Below are positions 3,622 to 28,578 of a stretch of DNA of 32,000 nt, piece after piece (within the stretch, counting starts at the first letter, position 1; every line of letters begins with the position of its first letter). Position numbers and translations under genes: made by a program. A model generated the notes under the pieces. The model did not search any database, had not been told where the DNA came from, and was given only the letters and a program-made list of their open reading frames with translations. Location of the stretch: positions 60,358-92,357 of the forward strand of contig PXRK01000040.1 in assembly GCA_003021015.1 (NCBI GenBank). Reading direction: 5' to 3'. Origin of the DNA: Halobacteriales archaeon QS_4_66_20. Lineage in GTDB: Archaea; Halobacteriota; Halobacteria; Halobacteriales; Haloarculaceae.

Positions 3622-3892
3622 ATACTGTCGGACGTGACTCTGTGGAATGGTCAGACACGCAAATCGGTGTATACAGTCAGACGTGATTCATACTGGTGGC
3701 TGTAATTCTTTTACTCGCCACTCTCTGCTACCTGAGGATACAGACCCTTTCCGCCTGGATTCTCAATTCGAGTTTTCACGTACTTACAGCCACCAGTATC
3801 AGTGAAGCTATGCCGTCCCAAATCCCGTTGTTCGGGGCATGACATAGCCGATGGACTGTCCTGGCACTGAACGGAGTCACGTCTGGCTGTAT
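3622..3892. mobile_element. Family-B MITE-like composite: solo left end (3622-3660) plus complete copy (3671-3892)
   Basis: The left ends are atactgtcggacgtgactctgtgg (3622) and atacagtcagacgtgattc (3671). The reverse complement of the right end at 3892 is atacagccagacgtgactcc. The first 45 nt match the left arm of the copy at 19514. Confidence 0.65.
3690..3799. mobile_element. Family-C 110-bp TIR element nested in the family-B copy
   Basis: There is a perfect 16-bp inverted repeat: atactggtggctgtaa (3690-3705) and ttacagccaccagtat (3784-3799). The interior is about 46% GC. It shares the ATAC..GTAT termini and size class of family A. Confidence 0.55.
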
Positions 3893-5014: not shown

Positions 5015-5461
5015 GTGTACGACCACATTCTGGTCCCGACGGACGGCTCGGCAGGGATGGAGACCGTCATCGAGCACGCCGTCTCGCTGGCCCAACTCCA
5101 CGGCGGGACCCTCCACGGCCTGTACGTCGTCAACACCGCGGCGCTGACCGATCTCCCGATGGAGTCCTCCTGGGAGGGCGTCAGCCAGGCGCTCGAACAG
5201 GAGGGCCAGGTCGCGCTCAACGAGGTCGAACAGCTGGCCCGTGACGTCCCGGTCGAGGTGACCCGGATCGAGGGGTCGCCCGCCCGGGAGATCGTCTCCT
5301 ACGCCGAGGACAACGACGTGGACGTGATCGTCATGGGAACACACGGCCGCTCGGGCGTGGACCGACTGCTGCTGGGCAGCGTCGCTGAACGGGTCGTCCG
5401 GTCCTCCAGCGTCCCCGTGTTGACGATCCGCGTGGCGGGGAACCGCGAGGACGACTCCTGA
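5015..5461 (+). CDS. Universal stress protein (UspA family)
   Basis: MYDHILVPTDGS...DVIVMGTHGRSGVDRLLLGSVAERVVRSSSVPVLTI. GTG start. Confidence 0.9.
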   Translation: MYDHILVPTDGSAGMETVIEHAVSLAQLHGGTLHGLYVVNTAALTDLPMESSWEGVSQALEQEGQVALNEVEQLARDVPVEVTRIEGSPAREIVSYAEDNDVDVIVMGTHGRSGVDRLLLGSVAERVVRSSSVPVLTIRVAGNREDDS

Positions 5462-11568: not shown

Positions 11569-11760
11569 TACTGCCGGACGTGATTCCGTTACTACCCGGA
11601 TAGCACTCAGCATCTGATAGTGATTATTGTGAGTCGTTCCGGTATCGACCGCGGTACTGCGTGCGGTCGACCCGGTAAACAGTCACAATAATCACTATGA
11701 GACAACCGAAAACCCCAGTCCGAGCATCACTCGGAGTAACATAGTCACGTCCGGCAGTAT
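11568..11760. mobile_element. Family-B MITE-like element (193 bp) carrying a nested family-A element
   Basis: The left end is atactgccggacgtgattccgttact. The reverse complement of the right end is atactgccggacgtgactatgttact, which matches at 16/16 terminal nt and extends to about 30. Confidence 0.7.
11617..11698. mobile_element. Family-A short variant (82 bp), nested
   Basis: The TIRs are atagtgattattgtgag and (reverse complement) atagtgattattgtgac. The interior is itself a hairpin: ccggtatcgaccgc...gcggtcgacccgg. Confidence 0.7.
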
Positions 11761-15063: not shown

Positions 15064-15089
15064 GCCCGACGGTTGGATTCCAGGGACTA

Positions 15090-15200
15090 ATAGTGATTGT
15101 TGTGATTATTTTCGGCACCATGTCGCAATAGCGGCGATTTCACGGCCCGAAACTGGCGTCTGAGGAATACCCGGCGGTAAAGAGTCACAACAATCACTAT
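15090..15200. mobile_element. Family-A MITE-like element, full 111-bp copy (forward orientation)
   Basis: It runs atagtgattgttgtga...tcacaacaatcactat. It differs at 7 of 111 positions from the copy at 28360-28470. No ORF. Confidence 0.75.
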
Positions 15201-15215
15201 CAGAGGGTGTAGCTG

Positions 15216-15714: not shown

Positions 15715-15899
15715 CGAGCGGCGCCTTTCTGGCGTCGATGTGGCGGCGCCGGGCAGAACCGCTGGCGCTCCCCCTGCTGGACGTCGCCGTCCGCGACGAT
15801 GGCCCTAGAATCCCGGAGCACGAACAGGCAGTCCTCCTGGAAGGCGAGGAGACGCCGCTGAGCCACGGGAGCGGCCTCGGGCTCTGGCTCGTCTACTGA
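15711..15899 (+). pseudogene. Histidine-kinase remnant (part of the HATPase_c domain only)
   Basis: LDVAVRDDGPRIPEHEQAVLLEGEETPLSHGSGLGLWLVY contains degenerate G1 and intact G2 boxes. There is no HisKA or N box. The track start is a TTG. The C-terminus is cut by the family-A terminus, which supplies the TGA. Confidence 0.7.
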
Positions 15900-15988
15900 T
15901 ACTGATTGTTGTGACTCGTTACCTCGGGTATTCGCCAGACGCCAGTTTCGGGACGTGAAACCGCCGCTACTGCGATGTCGTGCCGAAA
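15899..15988. mobile_element. Family-A element, reverse orientation, one TIR missing
   Basis: atactgattgttgtgactcgttacctcgggtattcgccagacgccagtttcggg... aligns with the reverse complement of 28360-28470. It diverges after ...gtgccgaaa into a local inverted duplication (gtgaaaccgccgcta / tagcggcggttcgtcac). Confidence 0.65.
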
Positions 15989-16141
15989 GTAAATAGCGGC
16001 GGTTCGTCACGAAAACTCTGTATAGCTAGGCTCCACCACTAAGAGTGGGGAGCTACAAGAAGACGTTAGCATGAGCGCACCGGCCCACGACCGAACCGGC
16101 GACGACTCCGTCGTTCGGGCCACTGTCCGCCGAGCCAGCAT

Positions 16142-17224
16142 ATGATCGAGGGGAACGACTGTCGGGACGCCGTCTCGATCGATCGCTACCCGGGGCCAGT
16201 GTGCAGCTACACCTGCCGGAACGGGGAACCGGTGATCGAGCGGGCAAACGAGGCCTTCGAGGGGGCGTTCGGGGCGGTCGCGGCGGGCGACGCGCTCGCG
16301 CCCGTGTTCGAGGAGTACGGGATCGAACCGATCGACGGCCCGGCGCCGCTGTCAGCGATGATGAACGAGGATCGCACCCAGCAGGTCCGCGTCGAATCGC
16401 CACCGGAGACGGGGGCGGGGGCGAACAGGTACCTGGCGCAGGTGATCGCACCGGACGGCGAGCGACCGGGGCACCTGCTGTTGACTGACGCCAGCGCCGG
16501 CGACGGCGACTTCGGCGTCGACAGGGTCGCGAGCGTGATCAGTCACGACCTCCGCAACCCGCTCGACGTCGCCAAGGCGCGACTCAGGGCCGGACGGGAG
16601 CTGGACTCCGGGGAGGATCACCTCGAACACGTCGAACAGGCCCACGACCGCATGGAGCGGATTATCCAGGACGTGCTGACGCTCGCGCGCGGCGAGGAAG
16701 TGATCGAACCGGAGGGGACGGTCGACCTCGGGGCAGTCGCCGAGGACGCCTGGGAGACCGTCGAGACGAACGGCGCGTCGCTGTCGGTCACCGATTCGTT
16801 GCCGTCGACAGTCGCGGACCGCGACCGGGTCAAGCGGCTGTTCGAGAACCTGTTTCGCAACGCCGTGGAACACGGTTCCACGAGCCGGCAGCCTCCAGCT
16901 GACGACGCCGTCGAGCACAGCTCCACGGGCAGTGGGCCCTCTGCCGACAACGACGACGAACACGGCGGCGACGAAATCACGATCACGGTCGGCCGCATCG
17001 AAGACGGGACGACGGGGTTCTACGTCGCGGACGACGGACGGGGCATCCCGGCGGACCGCCGGGAGGCCGTCTTCAGGCCGGGGTACAGTTCCGACGAGCA
17101 CGGCACGGGGCTCGGTCTCGCTATCGTCCGGCGGATCGCGGACGTCCACGGGTGGTCGGTCTCGGTGACGGACGCCGCGGGCGGCGGCGCACGGTTCGAG
17201 TTCGTCGGCGTCGAACCTGCCTGA
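16142..17224 (+). CDS. Sensor histidine kinase (PAS-like N-terminus, HisKA, HATPase_c)
   Basis: The boxes are H box SVISHDLRNPL, N box FENLFRNAVEHG, G1 VADDGRGIP and G2 GTGLGLAIV. The stop TGA overlaps the family-A terminus. Confidence 0.9.
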   Translation: MIEGNDCRDAVSIDRYPGPVCSYTCRNGEPVIERANEAFEGAFGAVAAGDALAPVFEEYGIEPIDGPAPLSAMMNEDRTQQVRVESPPETGAGANRYLAQVIAPDGERPGHLLLTDASAGDGDFGVDRVASVISHDLRNPLDVAKARLRAGRELDSGEDHLEHVEQAHDRMERIIQDVLTLARGEEVIEPEGTVDLGAVAEDAWETVETNGASLSVTDSLPSTVADRDRVKRLFENLFRNAVEHGSTSRQPPADDAVEHSSTGSGPSADNDDEHGGDEITITVGRIEDGTTGFYVADDGRGIPADRREAVFRPGYSSDEHGTGLGLAIVRRIADVHGWSVSVTDAAGGGARFEFVGVEPA

Positions 17225-17334
17225 TAGTGATTGTTGCGACTCTTTCCCGCCGGGGAGTCACAATTCGTGGGCTTCAGCCCGCGAACCAACCGTTCACGCG
17301 TCGTGGTGCCGAAAATAATCGCAACAATCACTAT
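17224..17334. mobile_element. Family-A element, 111 bp, variant interior (reverse orientation)
   Basis: The outer ~33 and ~31 nt match family A, with the TIR atagtgattgttgCga in both arms. The central ~47 nt is unrelated to the other copies. Confidence 0.7.
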
Positions 17335-17397
17335 GAGAGCGAGGGTGAAGGAGAGTCAGACAGATGCTTACGTCCCACACTCGAATCGGGAGCAAAG

Positions 17398-18888
17398 ATG
17401 GACGAGCGAGCTGAGCGAGCGCCCATCGGGATTCTCGAAGCGGCGCCCGACGGGACGGTAACTGCGGTGAACGAAACGGCGGGGGCGTTGCTCGACACCG
17501 ACCACAGCGCGACGGGACAGAGCATCGAAGCGCTGTTCCCGGAGTCGGTCGACAACACGGTGCCGGGGGCGTTCGATGGGGCGGTCTCCGAACAGCTGCG
17601 GGTCGAGGAGTACTACCCCGCGCTGGAGTCGTGGTTCGAGGTGACGATCGTCCCCGGCGGGGAGACGGTGACGGTGTACCTCGAGGACATCACCGGGTAC
17701 AAGCGCGACGAGCAGTCCCGGCAGGCGCTGGAGAGCGACCTGAACCGGCTGACGATCATCAACGAACTCATCTCGGACATCCTGGCGGAACTGGTGGGTG
17801 CCTCTTCGCGGGAGGAGATCGCCCGGACCATCTCGACCCGGCTGGGCGAGACCGACATCTACGAGTTCGCCTGGATTGGCGAGCGCGAACTCGGCGGCGA
17901 GGACATCGTCGTGCGGGCCGCTGCGGGCTCGACCGGCCGCACGCTCGACCAGATCGAGGAGAGCCTCGACGGCAGGAAGACCCCGCCCGAACAGCGGGTC
18001 GTCGAAACGGGCGAGCCGACGATCATCGCCGACGGCCTGCAGTCGCTTCTGGCGATCCCGCTGACCTACGGGTCGAGCGTCCACGGCGTCGTCGGGATCT
18101 ACGCCGCCGACAGGGACGCCTTCTCCGAGCGCGAGCGCGCGAGCTTCGAGACGCTCGGGGAGATGGCCGGGTTCGCGGTCAACGCCGCCCGCAACCGGAA
18201 CCTCCTGCTGTCGGACTCGATCGTCGAGCTGACGATCGAACTGCGCGACACCGAGGCGCCGCTGTGCGACGCCGCCACTGGCCGGGAGGCGACGCTGAAC
18301 GTCGACGGCGTCGTCCCGCAGGGCGACGACCCGCTACTGTGTTACCTGGTGGTAGAGGACGGCTCTCCCAACGCAGTCGCCGACGCCCTCGACGACCACG
18401 ACAGGGTGGTGTCGACGCGCGTGATCGGCGACCACGGCGAGACCGGCTCGATCGAGGTCGGGCTGAACGAGGAGACGCCGCTGGGCCACCTCGCCTCCCA
18501 CGGCGTGACGATCGCCGACGCGGAGTTCGCGTCGGGGCGTGGCCGGGTCGTCACCGAACTCTCGCCGGAGGAGGACGTCCGCCGGATTGCGACCGCGCTC
18601 ACGCGGCGGTACGACGCCGAGGTGGTGGCGAAACGCGAACGCGACAGGTCGATCAGGACCGCGCAGGCGTTCCGCGACGACCTCAGCGAGCGGCTGACCG
18701 GGCGCCAGGAGAGCGCGCTGCGGACCGCGTTCTTCGCGAACTACTTCGAGTCGCCGCGGGGCAGCACCGCAGCAGAGGTCGGCGAGGCGCTGGACATCAC
18801 CGGCCCGACGCTGCTGCATCACCTCCGTGCGGGCCAGCGCAAGCTCCTTTCGGAGTTTTTCGAAACCGGCGGCGATCGGCGCCCCTAG
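17398..18888 (+). CDS. Bat-like transcriptional regulator (PAS, GAF, HTH_10)
   Basis: It has an N-terminal PAS (GILEAAPDGTVTAVNETAGALL), a GAF-like centre, and a C-terminal LTGRQESALRTAFFANYFESPRGSTAAEVGEALDITGPTLLHHLRAGQRKL. Start at MDERAER; upstream track sequence crosses the MITE. Confidence 0.85.
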   Translation: MDERAERAPIGILEAAPDGTVTAVNETAGALLDTDHSATGQSIEALFPESVDNTVPGAFDGAVSEQLRVEEYYPALESWFEVTIVPGGETVTVYLEDITGYKRDEQSRQALESDLNRLTIINELISDILAELVGASSREEIARTISTRLGETDIYEFAWIGERELGGEDIVVRAAAGSTGRTLDQIEESLDGRKTPPEQRVVETGEPTIIADGLQSLLAIPLTYGSSVHGVVGIYAADRDAFSERERASFETLGEMAGFAVNAARNRNLLLSDSIVELTIELRDTEAPLCDAATGREATLNVDGVVPQGDDPLLCYLVVEDGSPNAVADALDDHDRVVSTRVIGDHGETGSIEVGLNEETPLGHLASHGVTIADAEFASGRGRVVTELSPEEDVRRIATALTRRYDAEVVAKRERDRSIRTAQAFRDDLSERLTGRQESALRTAFFANYFESPRGSTAAEVGEALDITGPTLLHHLRAGQRKLLSEFFETGGDRRP

Positions 18889-19466
18889 CGCCCTTCCCGC
18901 TGGACGCCGCTGAACTGTTCGAACAGTGTCGACGGCTCCTCCAGCAGGCGCCCGATCCGCCCGGCCAACTCCGCCGAGCGTTTCTGGAGCCGCTGGTACT
19001 CCTCGCTGTCCTCGCGCTCGCTGGCGGGCAGTTCCGCCTCGATGACACTCCGCTTGGATTCGAGGCTGAAGTACTCCCCGAGCAGTTCGTACCCGAGGAC
19101 CCGACACTGCTGGGTGACTGCAGCGCGGAGATGCTCCCGTTCCAGCGGTTTGCAGAGGTAGTCGTCGAACGGCATGTCGAGCACGTCGAACCCGGGATCG
19201 ATTGCGGTGACCATGATGACGCGCCCCTCGAAGCTGCGGTCCGTCAGCTCCTCGAGCACCTCATCACCCGACAGCCCCGGCATGTGTCTGTCGAGCAACA
19301 CAACGTCGATACTGGACTCCTCGACGGTCTCGAGTGCGCTCTCGCCGTCGTAGACGGTTTCGATTTCGCAGAGTCCCCGGAGCCGGAGCGCGTACGCGTC
19401 GGCGACCTCCCGCTCGTCGTCGACGAGAAGCGCCCGTGGGAGTTCCGCTTCGCTCGCGTCAGCCAT
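18885..19466 (-). CDS. Response regulator with C-terminal HalX domain
   Basis: The receiver domain shows LLVDDE, VVLLDRHMPGLSG and CKP. The helical C-terminal part is typical of HalX. Start at MADASEAE. Confidence 0.85.
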   Translation of the reverse strand: MADASEAELPRALLVDDEREVADAYALRLRGLCEIETVYDGESALETVEESSIDVVLLDRHMPGLSGDEVLEELTDRSFEGRVIMVTAIDPGFDVLDMPFDDYLCKPLEREHLRAAVTQQCRVLGYELLGEYFSLESKRSVIEAELPASEREDSEEYQRLQKRSAELAGRIGRLLEEPSTLFEQFSGVQREGR

Positions 19467-19513
19467 ACTGTACTCTACGCCGGTCTTGCGGTGGAGGTGT
19501 CTTAACACCTCCT

Positions 19514-19699
19514 ATACACCCGGACGTGACTCTGTTAGATGTCAGGACACGATATCCACGAGTATCGACCCTGACAGTCCCGAGTTGTGTCGAGATGACT
19601 GAGGTGAATCACGTCTCTCCTCGCGGGGGTCGGTTGCGAACCGCTCGGCAGCCCGAGTTGTGTCGAGATGACTGAGGTGAATCACGTCCGGGTGTCTAT
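19514..19699. mobile_element. Family-B MITE-like element (186 bp) with duplicated right arm
   Basis: The left end is atacacccggacgtgactctgtt. The reverse complement of the right end is atagacacccggacgtgattc. An internal 37-bp perfect direct repeat lies at 19579-19615 and 19652-19688. Confidence 0.65.
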
Positions 19700-19743
19700 C
19701 GTGGTTCATCGCCCCGGGCTCCGGCGGGACAGGCTTGAAGGTC

Positions 19744-19805
19744 GGTCGGCAACAGTTAAACATCGGCCCTGCTTTCTGGGAGGTGTGAGCCGGATTCTCA
19801 TCGGG
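19744..19805 (+). repeat. 62-bp direct repeat, copy 1 (duplicate of the PiT promoter and first 7 codons)
   Basis: It matches 20798-20859 at 60 of 62 positions. It contains TTAAAC (19756-19761) and GTG (19785), the latter opening only a 20-codon ORF. Confidence 0.85.
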
Positions 19806-19828
19806 TTGACCAGCGCCTCGACGTCGGC

Positions 19829-19912
19829 CACCTCGAAGGCGGCGTGATACAGCCCGACGCCCTCGCCGGGCACCTCGAAGGCGGCGTGGTACAGCCCGAC
19901 GCCCTCGCCGGG
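19829..19912. repeat. 42-bp tandem duplication (2 units, 1 mismatch)
   Basis: The units are cacctcgaaggcggcgtgatacagcccgacgccctcgccggg (19829-19870) and 19871-19912, differing only a/g at 19847/19889. They encode PGEGVGLYHAAFEV twice. Confidence 0.9.
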
Positions 19913-20159
19913 GCCCGGCGCTCCCCGCCCGACCTCCTGGAGGGCGACGTCGTGGTGGCGCTCGCCGGAGGAGAGGAACGCGAAGCAGTTGTGCCGCTCC
20001 TCGACGTTGAGGCTCAGCACCTCCGCGTAAAATTCGACGGCGCGCTCGACGTCGCGTACTTTCAGGTGGACATGTCCGACCATCTACGGCCGGCCGGCTG
20101 CGTCGGGTTGCTCTGCCATGCTCACACTGTGGTGCGAGACGGACAAAAAATCGGCGGGG

Positions 20160-20714
20160 TCACTCCCCGTCGTACCGGTCGGCGGCGGACTCGAAGCCCA
20201 GCTCCTCTTGCTGGCGGCCCCGGCGGCGCTCGCGCTCGGCGATCGCCTCCGGATCGGGGTTGACGTCGTCGTCGATCCGCGCCCACGAGCCGTGGACCTT
20301 CGCGTGACACCACCGGCAGAGGTAGATCGTGATCTCGTGGGCGGCCTGGCCGGTGCCCGCCTCCGATTCCTCGGCGTACGAGAGGTGGTGCTCCTCCAGC
20401 AGCGGCCGGCCGTCGTCGTGGGCCATCCGCTCCTCCGTGAGCCCACACCGGACGCACTCGCGGTCGTGCTGCCGACACCGGAACTGCGGGCAGTCCTGCC
20501 ACTCCCAGGGCCCGGTCGGCCCCTCCTCGGTCGGGTCGCCCGCGACGGGACACTGGTACTCCCCCTCGCGCAGGCGGGTCGCAAACTCCGGGTCGCGGTC
20601 GCCCTGCTCGACCGCGAACCGGCACTTGCCCTCGCTGGTGAGGTGATCGCAGCGGTCGACGTGGGCGTACGGGTCGTCGACCCCGACCGGGGTGCCCGCG
20701 TCCGTCTTCTCCAT
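20160..20714 (-). CDS. Cys-rich protein with C-terminal HNH nuclease motif (184 aa)
   Basis: The HNH motif is CVRCG...LLEEHHLSY...LCRWCHAKVH. The N-terminal half has five further Cys (RCDHLTSEGKC, YQC, QDC, FRC). ATG at 20714; the track start at 20744 is a TTG. Confidence 0.7.
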   Translation of the reverse strand: MEKTDAGTPVGVDDPYAHVDRCDHLTSEGKCRFAVEQGDRDPEFATRLREGEYQCPVAGDPTEEGPTGPWEWQDCPQFRCRQHDRECVRCGLTEERMAHDDGRPLLEEHHLSYAEESEAGTGQAAHEITIYLCRWCHAKVHGSWARIDDDVNPDPEAIAERERRRGRQQEELGFESAADRYDGE

Positions 20715-20797
20715 GTGTTCGGGGTGGTGGCCGGGCGACTTCAACGTTCAGTTCGGCGAGAACTGGTTAGAGGTGGAGGCGTTGGTGCTGCTGGGAC

Positions 20798-20859
20798 GGT
20801 CGGCAACAGTTAAACATCGGCCACGCTTTCTGGGAGGTGTGAGCCAGATTCTCATCGGG
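20798..20859 (+). repeat. 62-bp direct repeat, copy 2 (functional PiT promoter and start)
   Basis: TTAAAC at 20810-20815 is centred about 27 nt upstream of the GTG start at 20839. Confidence 0.85.
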
Positions 20860-22014
20860 CTGGGAGTTCTCGTGGTCGTCTTCGTCGGCTACAACATCGG
20901 CGGGTCGACGACCGGCCCGGCGTTCGGGCCAGCCGTCGGTTCGGCCGTCATCTCGAAGGTGGCGGCCGCGGCGCTGATGGCGGTGTTTTTCTTCGTCGGT
21001 GCGATCACGCTCGGCCGCAGGGTCGTCGAGACGCTCGGCTCGGATCTCGTCACGTCGACCGCCATCTTCACGCTCGAAGCCAACGTCGTCGTGCTCTTTT
21101 TCATCGGCGGCGCGCTGTTCATCGGCAACTACGCCGGCGTCCCGGCGTCGACGTCGATGACGGCCGTCGGTGCGATCGCCGGGCTCGCGCTGTCCGCCGA
21201 CGCGCTCAACTGGACGGAGATGAGCCAGATCATGGCCTGGTGGATCGTCGCCCCGGTGATCGCCTTCTGGGTGTCCGGCGTCATCGGCCGGTACTTCTAC
21301 CCGCGACTCAACCGCCGCGTCGCGCTCGTCCAGAGCGAGGGGCCGTTGATCGAACTCGACCGCTCGGCTGCGGTGCCGCGGCCGGTCCCGGGCCCGAACA
21401 CGACGCGCCGGGAGTTCGCCGGCACCGTGATCGTGGTCGCGATCGGCTGTCTCATGGCGTTCTCCTCAGGCACCTCCAACATCGCCAACGCGATCGCACC
21501 GCTGGTCGGGAGCGACACCATCGGGATGAACGAGGGGATTGTCCTCGGGTCGGCCGCGGTCGCCATCGGCGCGTTCACGATCGGCCGCAAGACGCTCGAC
21601 ACACTCGGGAACGACCTGACTGCACTGCCGCTGACGGCGTCGATCGTCGTTGCGACCGTCAGCGCGACGATCGTGACGCTCCTCTCGTCGATCGGCATCC
21701 CCGCGAGTTTCGTCATCGTCGCCACGATGAGCATCATCGGCCTGGGCTGGGGGCGCGCGACGCGGACGACGACGGTCGAATCGATGCGCGACGGCGAACC
21801 GACCGCGGTCTCGCCGGCCTCCCTCGCCGCCGACGAGGGCGGCGAGGAACTGCCCGATATCGGCGAGGAGAACCCCGAGGAGCTCCCCTCCGCGGGCGAA
21901 CTGTTCAACCCTTCCACCACCGTTCGGGTCGTGCTGATGCAGAACGTCGTCCCCGTGATCGCCACCGTCGCGGCCTATCTGACGTTCACCTTCGTGCCGG
22001 TGTTCGGCCTGTGA
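20839..22014 (+). CDS. PiT-family inorganic phosphate transporter
   Basis: It is a multi-TM protein with the paired PiT signatures GYNIGGSTTGPAFGPAVGS and SGTSNIANAIAPLVGS. The GTG start gives VSQILIGLGVLVV. Confidence 0.85.
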   Translation: MSQILIGLGVLVVVFVGYNIGGSTTGPAFGPAVGSAVISKVAAAALMAVFFFVGAITLGRRVVETLGSDLVTSTAIFTLEANVVVLFFIGGALFIGNYAGVPASTSMTAVGAIAGLALSADALNWTEMSQIMAWWIVAPVIAFWVSGVIGRYFYPRLNRRVALVQSEGPLIELDRSAAVPRPVPGPNTTRREFAGTVIVVAIGCLMAFSSGTSNIANAIAPLVGSDTIGMNEGIVLGSAAVAIGAFTIGRKTLDTLGNDLTALPLTASIVVATVSATIVTLLSSIGIPASFVIVATMSIIGLGWGRATRTTTVESMRDGEPTAVSPASLAADEGGEELPDIGEENPEELPSAGELFNPSTTVRVVLMQNVVPVIATVAAYLTFTFVPVFGL

Positions 22015-22075: not shown

Positions 22076-23512
22076 ATGGTCACGCTCGCCTTCGACGGTC
22101 GAACCGGTGCGAGTGGGGACATGCTGCTGGGTGCGCTGCTGGCCGCCGGCGCCGACCGGTCGGCGCTGGACGTCCTGGAGCGAGAGCTAGGTGTCCGGTA
22201 CGATGTCGCCGAGACGACCCGGTGTGGCATCACCGCGACGCGGGTCGAGGTGGTGCTGGCAGACGAATCCACCAGTCACGATCGTTCCCACGACCAGTCC
22301 GACGGGGGACATTCTCAGGATCGTTCCCACGACCAGTCTGACGGGGGTCATTCTCAGGATCATTCCCACGACCAGTCTGACGGGGGTCGTTCTCAGGATC
22401 ATTCCCACGATCACTCTGACGAAGTACATTCCCACGATCACTCTGACGAAGTACATTCCCACGAAGGAACCGAGGGACACGCTCACGAACACACACACGC
22501 TGAGGGACAGGGGCCGGAACGCAGCTATGGCGAAGTCGTCGACCTCGTGGAGTCGATGGGGCTGACAGGGACGGTGGAGGACACGGCCCTGGCTATCTTC
22601 GAATTACTGGGGGAGGCAGAGGCGAGCGTCCACGGAACGGACCTCGAATCGACGCAGTTCCACGAGGTCGGCGCCGACGACGCGATCGCGGACGTGGTGG
22701 GCGTCGCGCTGTTGCTCGCGGACCTCGACCCCGACAGGGTCGTTACCACGCCGCTCGCGGCCGGGGGCGGAGAGGTGTCGATGAGTCACGGCATCTACCC
22801 GGTCCCGACGCCTGCCGTGGTCGAACTCGCCGAACGCGCCGACTGGTCGCTGCGGGGCGGACCCGTCGAAACGGAGCTCCTGACGCCGACGGGCGCCGCG
22901 GTGCTCGCCCACGTCGCGGCGGGCGTCGAGCGGCTTCCGTCCCTCAATATCGAGCAGTCGGGGTACGGCGCCGGGGCAAAATCCTTCGACCGGCAGCCGA
23001 ACGTCCTCCGGGCGGTCGTCGGCGAAGAGGCGGAGCGACTCAGACAGGAGCCGATCACGGTGCTGGAGACGAACCTCGACGATGCCAGCCCGGAGATCGT
23101 CGGCAGCCTGCAGGAGACGCTCGTCGACGCTGGCGCGCTCGACGTCACCGTGGTGCCGACGACGATGAAGAAGTCACGGCCGGGCCATCTCCTGAAGGTG
23201 ATCGTTCCGCCGGCCGACGCGGCGCAGGTCGCGCGGGCGCTGGCGGCCGAGACGGGAACCCTCGGCGTGCGCGAACACGGCAGCGGGCACCGCTTCGTCG
23301 CCGACCGCTCCGTCGAATCCGTCACCGTCGACGTCGAGGGTCGCTCCTGCGAACTGGACGTCAAGATCGGACGGTTCGGCGGCGATCCGGGCGAGGTGTT
23401 CGACGTCAGCGCGGAGTACGACGACGCGCTCCGGGTCGCCGGCGAGACCGACCTCCCCGTCCGGGAGGTTTGTCGGCGTGCAGAAAACCGTGCTCGCTCT
23501 CGATTTCTCTGA
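22076..23512 (+). CDS. larC: LarC-family nickel insertion protein (DUF111) with expanded His/Asp-rich tract
   Basis: MVTLAFDGRTGASGDMLLGALL, FHEVGADDAIADVVG and LLTPTGAAVLA, plus a C-terminal domain GTLGVRE. The His-rich insert spans residues ~66-145. Confidence 0.85.
   Translation: MVTLAFDGRTGASGDMLLGALLAAGADRSALDVLERELGVRYDVAETTRCGITATRVEVVLADESTSHDRSHDQSDGGHSQDRSHDQSDGGHSQDHSHDQSDGGRSQDHSHDHSDEVHSHDHSDEVHSHEGTEGHAHEHTHAEGQGPERSYGEVVDLVESMGLTGTVEDTALAIFELLGEAEASVHGTDLESTQFHEVGADDAIADVVGVALLLADLDPDRVVTTPLAAGGGEVSMSHGIYPVPTPAVVELAERADWSLRGGPVETELLTPTGAAVLAHVAAGVERLPSLNIEQSGYGAGAKSFDRQPNVLRAVVGEEAERLRQEPITVLETNLDDASPEIVGSLQETLVDAGALDVTVVPTTMKKSRPGHLLKVIVPPADAAQVARALAAETGTLGVREHGSGHRFVADRSVESVTVDVEGRSCELDVKIGRFGGDPGEVFDVSAEYDDALRVAGETDLPVREVCRRAENRARSRFL
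22280..22462 (+). repeat. Coding tandem repeats: 3 x 39 bp followed by 2 x 27 bp
   Basis: The 39-bp units are at 22280-22318, 22319-22357 and 22358-22396 (gatcRttcccacgaccagtcYgacggggg...). The 27-bp units are at 22409-22435 and 22436-22462 (gatcactctgacgaagtacattcccac, identical). Confidence 0.9.
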
Positions 23513-28249: not shown

Positions 28250-28295
28250 ACGACTAGTAGGGCTGATTCGTTCATTATACTGTCGGATGTGACTC

Positions 28296-28358
28296 TGTGG
28301 ATTATGACTGTTTACCGGGTCGACCACACGACTGCGTGCGGTCGATTCCGGAACGACG
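28296..28358. repeat. Family-A short variant, degenerate copy lacking intact TIRs
   Basis: gactgtttaccgggtcgacc...ggtcgattccggaacgac matches the arms of 11617-11698 in inverted orientation (37 of 38 arm positions). Confidence 0.6.
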
Positions 28359-28359
28359 C

Positions 28360-28470
28360 ATAGTGATTGTTGTGAGTATTTTCGGCACCACATCGCAGTA
28401 GCGGCGGTTTCACGGCCCGAAACTGGCGTCTGGCGAATACCCGGCGGTAAAGAGTCACAACAATCACTAT
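28360..28470. mobile_element. Family-A MITE-like element, full 111-bp copy (forward orientation), nested
   Basis: It runs atagtgattgttgtgagt...gagtcacaacaatcactat. A further partial TIR, atagtgattgt, follows at 28472-28482. Confidence 0.75.
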
Positions 28471-28578
28471 CATAGTGATTGTATCACCATGACGTGTCAC
28501 AGAGTCACGTCCGGGTGTATATGAGACCGAAACCAACTTTGATTAGTCCCGGTGTCGAACTCACAGAGAGGGAAGACG

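Follow-up and report, generated by a model that had tools for sequence, protein, structure and literature searches.

Insertion sequence (IS) elements and transposons leave target duplications of roughly 2–15 bp, directly repeated on both sides of the insert. The attachment (att) repeats of archaeal integrated elements reach lengths like the 62–66 bp considered here, and some elements integrate so that the 5′ end of the target gene is restored. Templated sequence insertions and the products of microhomology-mediated break-induced replication and fork stalling and template switching (MMBIR/FoSTeS), described mainly in eukaryotes (PMC5110952, PMC6902434), place a copy of a distant locus at a non-homologous site with 0–3 nt of microhomology, duplicate the target sequence and carry a short unknown or mutated stretch at one junction. 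The same features recur in a 988-bp segment of Halobacteriales archaeon QS_4_66_20 (contig PXRK01000040.1), which holds an intact DUF7097 gene and a truncated VOC gene and lies between direct repeats at the start of a PiT phosphate transporter gene; the whole stretch of DNA analysed, 32,000 nt long, is referred to as the window. This locus departs from the described templated insertions in its host, a polyploid haloarchaeon, in its long duplication of 63–66 bp, and in that the mechanism is read from the end product only. The likely origin of the structure is a single illegitimate, duplicative insertion of a 988-bp chromosomal fragment into the first PiT codons, carried as a strain-level variant. 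It adds a new and well-resolved case to a known type of event, in which illegitimate recombination inserts templated DNA and duplicates the target. It is a one-off rearrangement rather than a new mobile element or a new kind of genetic system. Its unusual points are how long the duplication is and that the polymorphism was sampled in a natural setting.

A repeat search of the window paired positions 19740–19808 with 20794–20862 (64 of 69 nt identical), and comparison with empty sites refined the limits to 19743–19808 and 20797–20862 (62/66 identical). An earlier note on this DNA, made from the letters alone, had placed a 62-nt repeat correctly at 19744–19805 and 20798–20859, but its count of 60/62 identical positions should read 59/62. 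In the 32-kb window, a count of each repeat half gave exactly two occurrences, where 100 shuffles led to an expectation of zero; with only two copies there, the repeats are a local duplication and not a dispersed family, as the note had supposed. The left copy, R1 (19743–19808, + strand), contains an orphan PiT core promoter (TTAAAC at 19756–19761), a GTG at 19785 and the first eight codons. The right copy, R2 (20797–20862, + strand), contains the predicted functional PiT core promoter (TTAAAC at 20810–20815, TTT at 20827–20829), the GTG at 20839 and codons 1–8. The duplicated piece therefore includes the PiT core promoter and start, as proposed, although the refined limits give eight codons where the note had seven. 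A 20-codon orphan open reading frame (ORF) of the extent originally described (19785–19847, + strand) starts in R1 and runs into sequence antisense to the VOC gene.

The data are metagenome-derived, and relatives were compared as contigs labelled L001 to L111 alongside the window. In four of them (L101, L102, L109, and L110), the HalX-type response regulator gene adjoins PiT with nothing between and with a single repeat copy. Joining the left flank and R1 to the right flank of R2 rebuilds this empty site base for base in the alignment, which sets the limits of R1 and R2 given above and those of the inserted segment proper (19809–20796, − strand, 988 bp), which is absent from the empty sites. 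By blastn, the reconstructed site is 94–99% identical at the nucleotide level to these four contigs, and synonymous divergence (dS) between the window and L101 and L102 is 0.025–0.07 in PiT, HalX, and BAT. L101 and L102 are contigs of the metagenome-assembled genomes (MAGs) of Halobacteriales archaeon SW_10_66_29 and QH_2_66_30, whose empty-site proteins fall within the 37-member, 90%-identity cluster of the window PiT; L109 and L110 are Joint Genome Institute (JGI) contigs. Two outgroups (L095 and L096; PiT 81–82% identical at the amino acid level) likewise have HalX (− strand) adjoining PiT (+ strand), followed by LarC and CopA, with one repeat copy, and L096 also has HisK and BAT genes upstream. 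Since the outgroups are empty, the empty state is ancestral. This synteny comparison, proposed in the earlier note, shows a lineage-specific cassette in an interval where conspecific contigs and outgroups have HalX and PiT side by side. PiT was beside DUF7097 in none of 70 loci from species-representative genomes, and a JGI metagenome scan with PiT returned only relatives of 65–71% identity, lacking the conserved context. Horizontal transfer of PiT, considered because of an identity gap (99%, then at most 83%), was dropped because the protein database is clustered at 90%.

Both junctions of the insertion were found in the window, L071, L104, and L105, and the right junction alone in L072. L071 is about 98–99% identical to the window, and the PiT protein is identical in the window, L071, and L072. 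All five cassette-bearing assemblies have the same minimal content. Filled and empty alleles come from a related sample series, and the insertion looks like a presence/absence polymorphism in a natural population, that is, a strain-level structural variant; in some empty strains, the insert could have been lost again by precise deletion between R1 and R2. The locus is thus a natural example of an archaeal gene relocated without a mobile element, with empty, filled and later-modified alleles sampled from one population.

The duplication was perfect at its origin. The L105 copies of R1 and R2 match at every one of 63 nt (19743–19805 and 20797–20859), and in L104 they differ by one private single-nucleotide polymorphism (SNP). 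The window copies differ by a CT/AC dinucleotide, one A/G and, at the edge, one T/C; the CT/AC and T/C differences also segregate among the empty-site strains, but the A/G difference does not. The window R2 is identical to the L110 allele, and R1 is of the L102/L109 type, one base off the L102 allele. This match to alleles of empty-site strains points to later allelic exchange and private mutation, and not to a foreign att site, and the R1/R2 differences are unusable as a clock. Across the cassette contigs, R1 has four private substitutions (one in L104, two in L107, one shared by the window and L071) and R2 has none beyond the allele swap, a pattern that, small as the numbers are, would be the one shown by a relaxed relic beside a constrained promoter.

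Inside the insert, the DNA next to R1 is a fragment of a VOC/glyoxalase-family gene (19809–20083, − strand) made up of the first ~78 codons and a lineage-specific in-frame tandem duplication of 14 codons (42 nt, within 19822–19905). The ORF itself extends over 19706–20083 (− strand), its tail (19706–19808) being read-through of R1 and intergenic DNA. It matches the Pfam Glyoxalase profile only at positions 2–86 of 121 and aligns to residues 2–72 of full-length relatives of 135–140 aa, or to about residue 78 by eye. The homology stops exactly at the start of R1, and the note was right to read this junction as a rearrangement breakpoint. The ORF is 125, 133, or 153 aa long depending on the strain; truncation, variable length and the lineage-specific duplication together mark the fragment as a pseudogene. 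A spacer (20084–20159, − strand) with a T6 run at 20145–20150 on the minus strand, just past the DUF7097 stop, separates it from DUF7097, and the DUF7097–VOC region is homologous in L106 down to 20066. The DUF7097 gene (20160–20714, − strand) is intact and encodes a Cys/His-rich protein of 184 aa (Pfam PF23382, E = 5e-85). Its ratio of nonsynonymous to synonymous divergence (dN/dS) relative to relatives is 0.13–0.29, and the inserted gene is under purifying selection. The GC content of the insert is 70.5%, like that of DUF7097 generally and close to the 66% of the window.

The remaining 82 bp of the insert, upstream of DUF7097 (20715–20796, − strand), were resolved from alignments and a table of variable sites. 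Positions 20715–20744 are identical to native DUF7097 loci. The next 22 nt (20745–20766) are homologous to the native upstream DNA but differ from it by a 1-nt deletion and five substitutions; each of the five either removes A/T or leaves the G/C content as it was, and together they turn an AATATT box at about −30 into AACGTT. No source could be identified for 20767–20796. Within the 52 bp beside R2 (20745–20796), only the 22 nt in register resemble the native upstream DNA (local-alignment p ~0.03–0.05), and local alignment gave no signal for the 3′ half of VOC as a source. This diverged edge possibly stems from error-prone synthesis close to the junction, from filler DNA or from later promoter remodelling. 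In a comparison with all native loci, the A/T-removing changes of the cassette cluster in 20735–20766, while the adjoining 935 bp are indistinguishable from L106–L108.

The earlier note had called the DUF7097 gene a Cys-rich HNH gene, a label the searches did not confirm. Pfam returned only the full-length DUF7097 family and no HNH match; the nearest nuclease profile, RecA_dep_nuc, fell below its cut-off (E = 0.019), and the match to McrA (PDB 6ghc) was weak (E = 1.7). Nine residues are invariant in 32 homologues (C87, C90, H109, H110, H126, C133, C136, H137, and H141; CxxC...HH...CxxCH...H), and an AlphaFold2 model of low confidence (pLDDT, the predicted local distance difference test, 47.5) has a strand-strand-helix arrangement at residues 106–142. 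These sub-threshold or indirect hints make an HNH-like fold plausible.

We next considered where the cargo came from. DUF7097 was present in all 70 loci recovered from species-representative haloarchaeal genomes, with 38 of 63 usable upstream flanks in one similarity cluster, a DUF192 neighbour in 37–38 loci and a guaA-type glutamine amidotransferase downstream in 31. VOC lies between DUF7097 and the amidotransferase in L025, L035, L040, and L047. In most haloarchaea DUF7097 thus has a conserved setting other than the one in the window. The cargo is ordinary chromosomal DNA from another locus; its ends lie midway through VOC and some tens of bp upstream of the DUF7097 gene, at arbitrary points as in templated insertions. 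In the closest native loci, L099 (96.7% nucleotide identity), L100 (93.9%), and L001 (92%), homology to the window is confined to 20163–20766; the same limit holds for L103, also among the closest (within the 92–97% range). The R sequence is absent from the native DUF7097 loci L001–L070, L099, and L100 and present only at HalX–PiT.

The VOC gene is also incomplete in the closest native loci. In L001 (864–1193), L100 (1280–1544), and L099 (932–1250), the native VOC keeps only its 3′ half (residues 73–135). In L001-type loci the 5′ half is replaced by an unrelated 125-nt segment whose opposite strand resembles the end of a coding sequence, and this segment had no match elsewhere. The cassette VOC (residues 1 to ~78) is complementary to the native 3′ half, with breakpoints 17 nt apart, and the 42-nt VOC tandem duplication lies immediately beside these mid-VOC breakpoints. 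Mid-VOC appears to be a hot spot of local rearrangement, and the HalX–PiT spacer is flagged as another. In L001, three tandem copies of a ~35-nt unit (ATGTGGTATAGTCACTTTAGCAGGATTCCTCATAG) occupy positions 79–200, just upstream of the native DUF7097 and at the end of a MAG contig.

In the reading we favour, non-homologous recombination would have placed once, in the first codons of PiT, a fragment consisting of DUF7097, 31–82 bp of its upstream DNA, the terminator spacer and the first ~78 VOC codons, so that 63–66 bp of the target ended up on both sides. A break with 63–66-nt staggered ends might have been filled in around the captured fragment, or a replicating strand might have switched template to the DUF7097–VOC locus and returned 63–66 nt behind its point of departure; the sequence would look the same either way. 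The donor copy may have been retained. Comparison with the empty site and with donor-like sequences leaves no more than 3 nt of microhomology at either junction. A single illegitimate duplicative insertion would account for the whole end product: DNA templated on the chromosome, junctions that are nearly blunt and a target duplication that is both long and perfect. Because the duplicated segment holds the whole leaderless promoter, the GTG and eight codons, PiT remains intact behind R2, and the insertion could survive. The locus illustrates how a gene split by an insertion can be rescued when a long target duplication restores its leaderless promoter and its start. Microhomology-mediated end joining has been shown to operate in haloarchaea, which are polyploid (PMC5435918, PMC12281630, PMC7776575).

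The likeness to IS elements and transposons ends with the direct duplication of the target on both sides. Neither the insert (19809–20796) nor its flanks contain a transposase or integrase ORF in the ORF list or by Pfam, a 5-nt inverted match (CCAGC/GCTGG) is all that the ends of the insert share, which falls short of convincing terminal inverted repeats, and the insert consists of a truncated stretch of chromosome. The duplication is 63–66 bp by empty-site alignment, in contrast to the short, fixed length that IS elements and transposons leave, which agrees with the earlier judgement that it is too long for a transposase. Of the two histories that the note preferred, tandem duplication followed by deletion is unnecessary, as one insertion with target duplication explains the structure, and the att-like site of an excised or decayed element is set aside below.

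Several observations weigh against a one-step insertion. It is unusual for a target duplication to measure 37–66 bp, and the analysis identified no enzyme or pathway that makes such duplications. A search of 5.8 billion proteins, shallow and yielding 22 candidates, found no native full-length VOC of the cassette allele. Divergence from the native upstream DNA is much stronger in the 52 bp beside R2 than in the 935 bp adjoining them, a difference not accounted for by clean copying. Finally, L107 and L108 (and possibly the shorter contig L106) join the same junction of R1 and truncated VOC not to R2 and PiT but to the native DNA upstream of DUF7097, on the side of a CoxL-type molybdopterin oxidoreductase gene. 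One-step insertion does not predict such contigs unless a native copy coexists and recombines or misleads the assembler. The DUF7097 protein of L106, L107, and L108 is identical to that of L104 and L105, so the same protein occurs in both the cassette and the native-upstream context. L107 and L108 could be inversion isomers formed via a retained native copy, intermediates of a two-step relocation, or strain-chimeric assemblies. The DUF7097 block is inverted relative to the CoxL-type gene between L106–L108 on the one hand and L103 and L001 on the other, which reflects either genuine isomers produced by rearrangement in the species complex or chimeras of assembly.

A two-step relocation would replace the single insertion with two successive large rearrangements. 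First, the PiT 5′ end and a mid-VOC site would be joined by an inversion or translocation, giving the order HalX, R1, truncated VOC, DUF7097, native upstream DNA and CoxL, as in L107 and L108; PiT would then return through a second event that broke the DNA immediately upstream of DUF7097 and immediately beyond the other R copy, with the net effect that DUF7097 is relocated between the R copies. We consider this unlikely, although it is the strongest competitor. L107 and L108 come from different samples and sources (the European Nucleotide Archive and JGI) and share the same R1 junction with native upstream DNA; each sample shown gave one contig type, and an intact native VOC of the cassette allele was not found. 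The L107/L108 type and the window type are indistinguishable over 19809–20744 and then diverge abruptly, being unrelated beyond the next 22 nt. However, the route requires two illegitimate events with near-coincident breakpoints, and R must still be duplicated in the first step, or PiT would be left without its promoter and start. L107 and L108 are moreover short metagenome contigs (1.6 kb) across a shared segment, for which chimeric assembly or later homologous exchange accounts equally well.

Integrated elements offer further explanations, since in both Campbell integration and archaeal attL/attR pairs direct repeats of tens of bp bracket the insert and the target gene stays intact through its duplicated end. 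An insert between direct 63–66-bp copies of homology is what a single homologous crossover would produce if a circle carried R next to truncated VOC and DUF7097; haloarchaea recombine readily, and the window R1 and R2 carry different population alleles. Yet the copies in L105 are identical, which makes the allele differences secondary, and R is joined to DUF7097 and VOC only in the cassette, so that the circle, of which no R-bearing example was seen, would itself need illegitimate joins. Insertion-duplication of this type is accordingly very unlikely. For the remnant of an integrative mobile element with the 62–66-bp repeat as its att site, the length of the repeat and the restored target 5′ end speak in favour, as both are features of some elements. 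The 988 bp, however, hold no integrase, other recombinase or other element gene, the cargo comes from a conserved pair of chromosomal genes and is truncated, R is missing at the donor loci, and the five cassette-bearing assemblies share the same minimal content; we regard this origin, which the note had entertained, as close to refuted. About equally improbable is homing, with DUF7097 as a free-standing HNH endonuclease that cleaved the 5′ region of PiT and was copied in during repair of the break. The invariant Cys/His motif, the sub-threshold RecA_dep_nuc and McrA matches and the strand-strand-helix of the low-confidence model would agree with a nuclease, but selfish homing genes do not behave like this one, which is found in all 70 loci, has mostly one conserved syntenic setting and is under purifying selection; copying to an allelic site needs flanking homology, of which there is none here, and the insertion is at a single site. 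A chimeric join at the repeat is extremely improbable. The data are metagenome-derived and contigs such as L111 begin inside R, but both junctions are spanned in four independent assemblies (the window, L071, L104, and L105) from different samples with SNP differences, which shows that the structure is not an assembly artefact.

We then examined what the insertion may have done to transcription. The GTG at 20839 is the PiT start and is kept in relatives. Relative to it, R2 has TTAAAC at −29 to −24 and TTT at −12 to −10, preceded by an A-rich stretch at the position of the TFB recognition element (BRE); BRE and TATA box together span −37 to −24, with TT at −11/−10. This is where BRE, TATA and TT elements are placed in haloarchaeal promoters. 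Haloferax mRNAs are as a rule leaderless, GUG-initiated ones included (PMC4983044). R2 is thus predicted to be a working leaderless promoter and start for PiT. It keeps only 42 bp of native DNA upstream of the start, and the native DNA further upstream now lies 1 kb away, beside R1. R1 has an intact TATA box in most strains, and the + strand of 19785–20845 has no run of four or more T. It is plausible from this layout that a transcript from R1, if made, would be antisense to the VOC fragment and DUF7097 and might read on into PiT. In Haloferax, antisense transcripts are frequent and their abundance anticorrelates with sense levels (PMC4983044). The parting of PiT from its native upstream DNA and a spare promoter facing antisense into DUF7097 are therefore a putative regulatory side effect of the insertion.

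A second, much smaller insertion lies in the same spacer. A 36-nt insert (19616–19651) sits between perfect 37-nt direct repeats (19579–19615 and 19652–19688; whole structure 19579–19688, no strand assigned). This 37/36/37-nt structure occurs only in the window and L071, and seven relatives, including L102, L104, L105, L107, and L108, have a single copy. The 36-nt insertion is later than the cassette and belongs to the window/L071 sub-lineage, with the same shape of insert plus duplication. One lineage thus has two insertions with long target duplications within ~250 bp. No source for the 36-mer was found in the window or in any of the loci examined, and neither it nor its 24-mers matched IMG/VR.

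Its geometry is like that left by Cas1–Cas2 in the integration of spacers into clustered regularly interspaced short palindromic repeats (CRISPR) and in off-target neo-CRISPR arrays, as outlined in a preprint (bioRxiv 10.1101/148544, citing Nivala et al. 2018). Unlike a CRISPR repeat-spacer unit, it has no match to an Rfam CRISPR direct repeat and no viral match to the 36-mer, and an Rfam search of 19300–21000 returned nothing credible for a CRISPR repeat or any other RNA family. The window showed neither cas genes nor an array, although no systematic search for them was made. The 988-bp insert with its 63–66-bp duplication is not explained by CRISPR integration. A recurrent, undescribed route of insertion that leaves target duplications of 37–66 bp around captured DNA, and so covers both inserts, is improbable. 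Such a route could be driven by paired nicks, for example from an off-target CRISPR integrase or from an HNH-like DUF7097 itself. If true, it would be a way for haloarchaea to relocate chromosomal genes while the disrupted target is preserved.

The spacer also carries, at 19513–19698, an element of ~113 nt (after removal of the 73-nt duplication) with 20-nt inverted ends (TATACACCCGGACGTGACTC / GAATCACGTCCGGGTGTCTA). L102, L109, L110, and the cassette strains all have this element, and L101 and L096 lack it. An inverted copy of the first 23 nt of the element lies at 28499–28521, and a related motif is found at 3622–3659 and 28277–28314. A dispersed family of ~120 nt resembling miniature inverted-repeat transposable elements, with inverted ends ATAGTGATTGTTGTGA...TCACAACAATCACTAT, has copies at 11614–11706, 15085–15208, 15896–15991, 17221–17342, and 28355–28478; relative to L001, L099 and L100 have a copy just after DUF7097. 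Another non-coding sequence of ~120 nt occurs at 3684–3803 in the window, at 5217–5336 and 8466–8573 in L001 and at 3735–3850 in L103 (80–91% identity, in unrelated places); it probably represents another family of small repeats or a gene for an RNA.

The genes around the insertion complete the picture of the locus. To the left are a BAT-type regulator (~17400–18888, + strand), the HalX-type response regulator gene (18885–19466, − strand; Pfam Response_reg and HalX), which is the left native neighbour of the target, and the native HalX–PiT intergenic DNA (19467–19742, no strand assigned), delimited by alignments with the empty sites. To the right, the intact PiT/PHO4 phosphate transporter gene runs from the GTG at 20839 to 22014 (+ strand) and encodes 391 aa (PHO4, Pfam PF01384, E = 3.6e-40). 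LarC and then a CopA-type ATPase follow on the 3′ side of PiT. Within LarC, positions 22276–22470 contain 39-nt and 27-nt tandem repeats coding for a His/Asp-rich stretch (SHDQSDGGHSQD...). The length of LarC is strain-dependent, with 478 aa in the window and 469, 456, 451, 446, and 443 aa in relatives.

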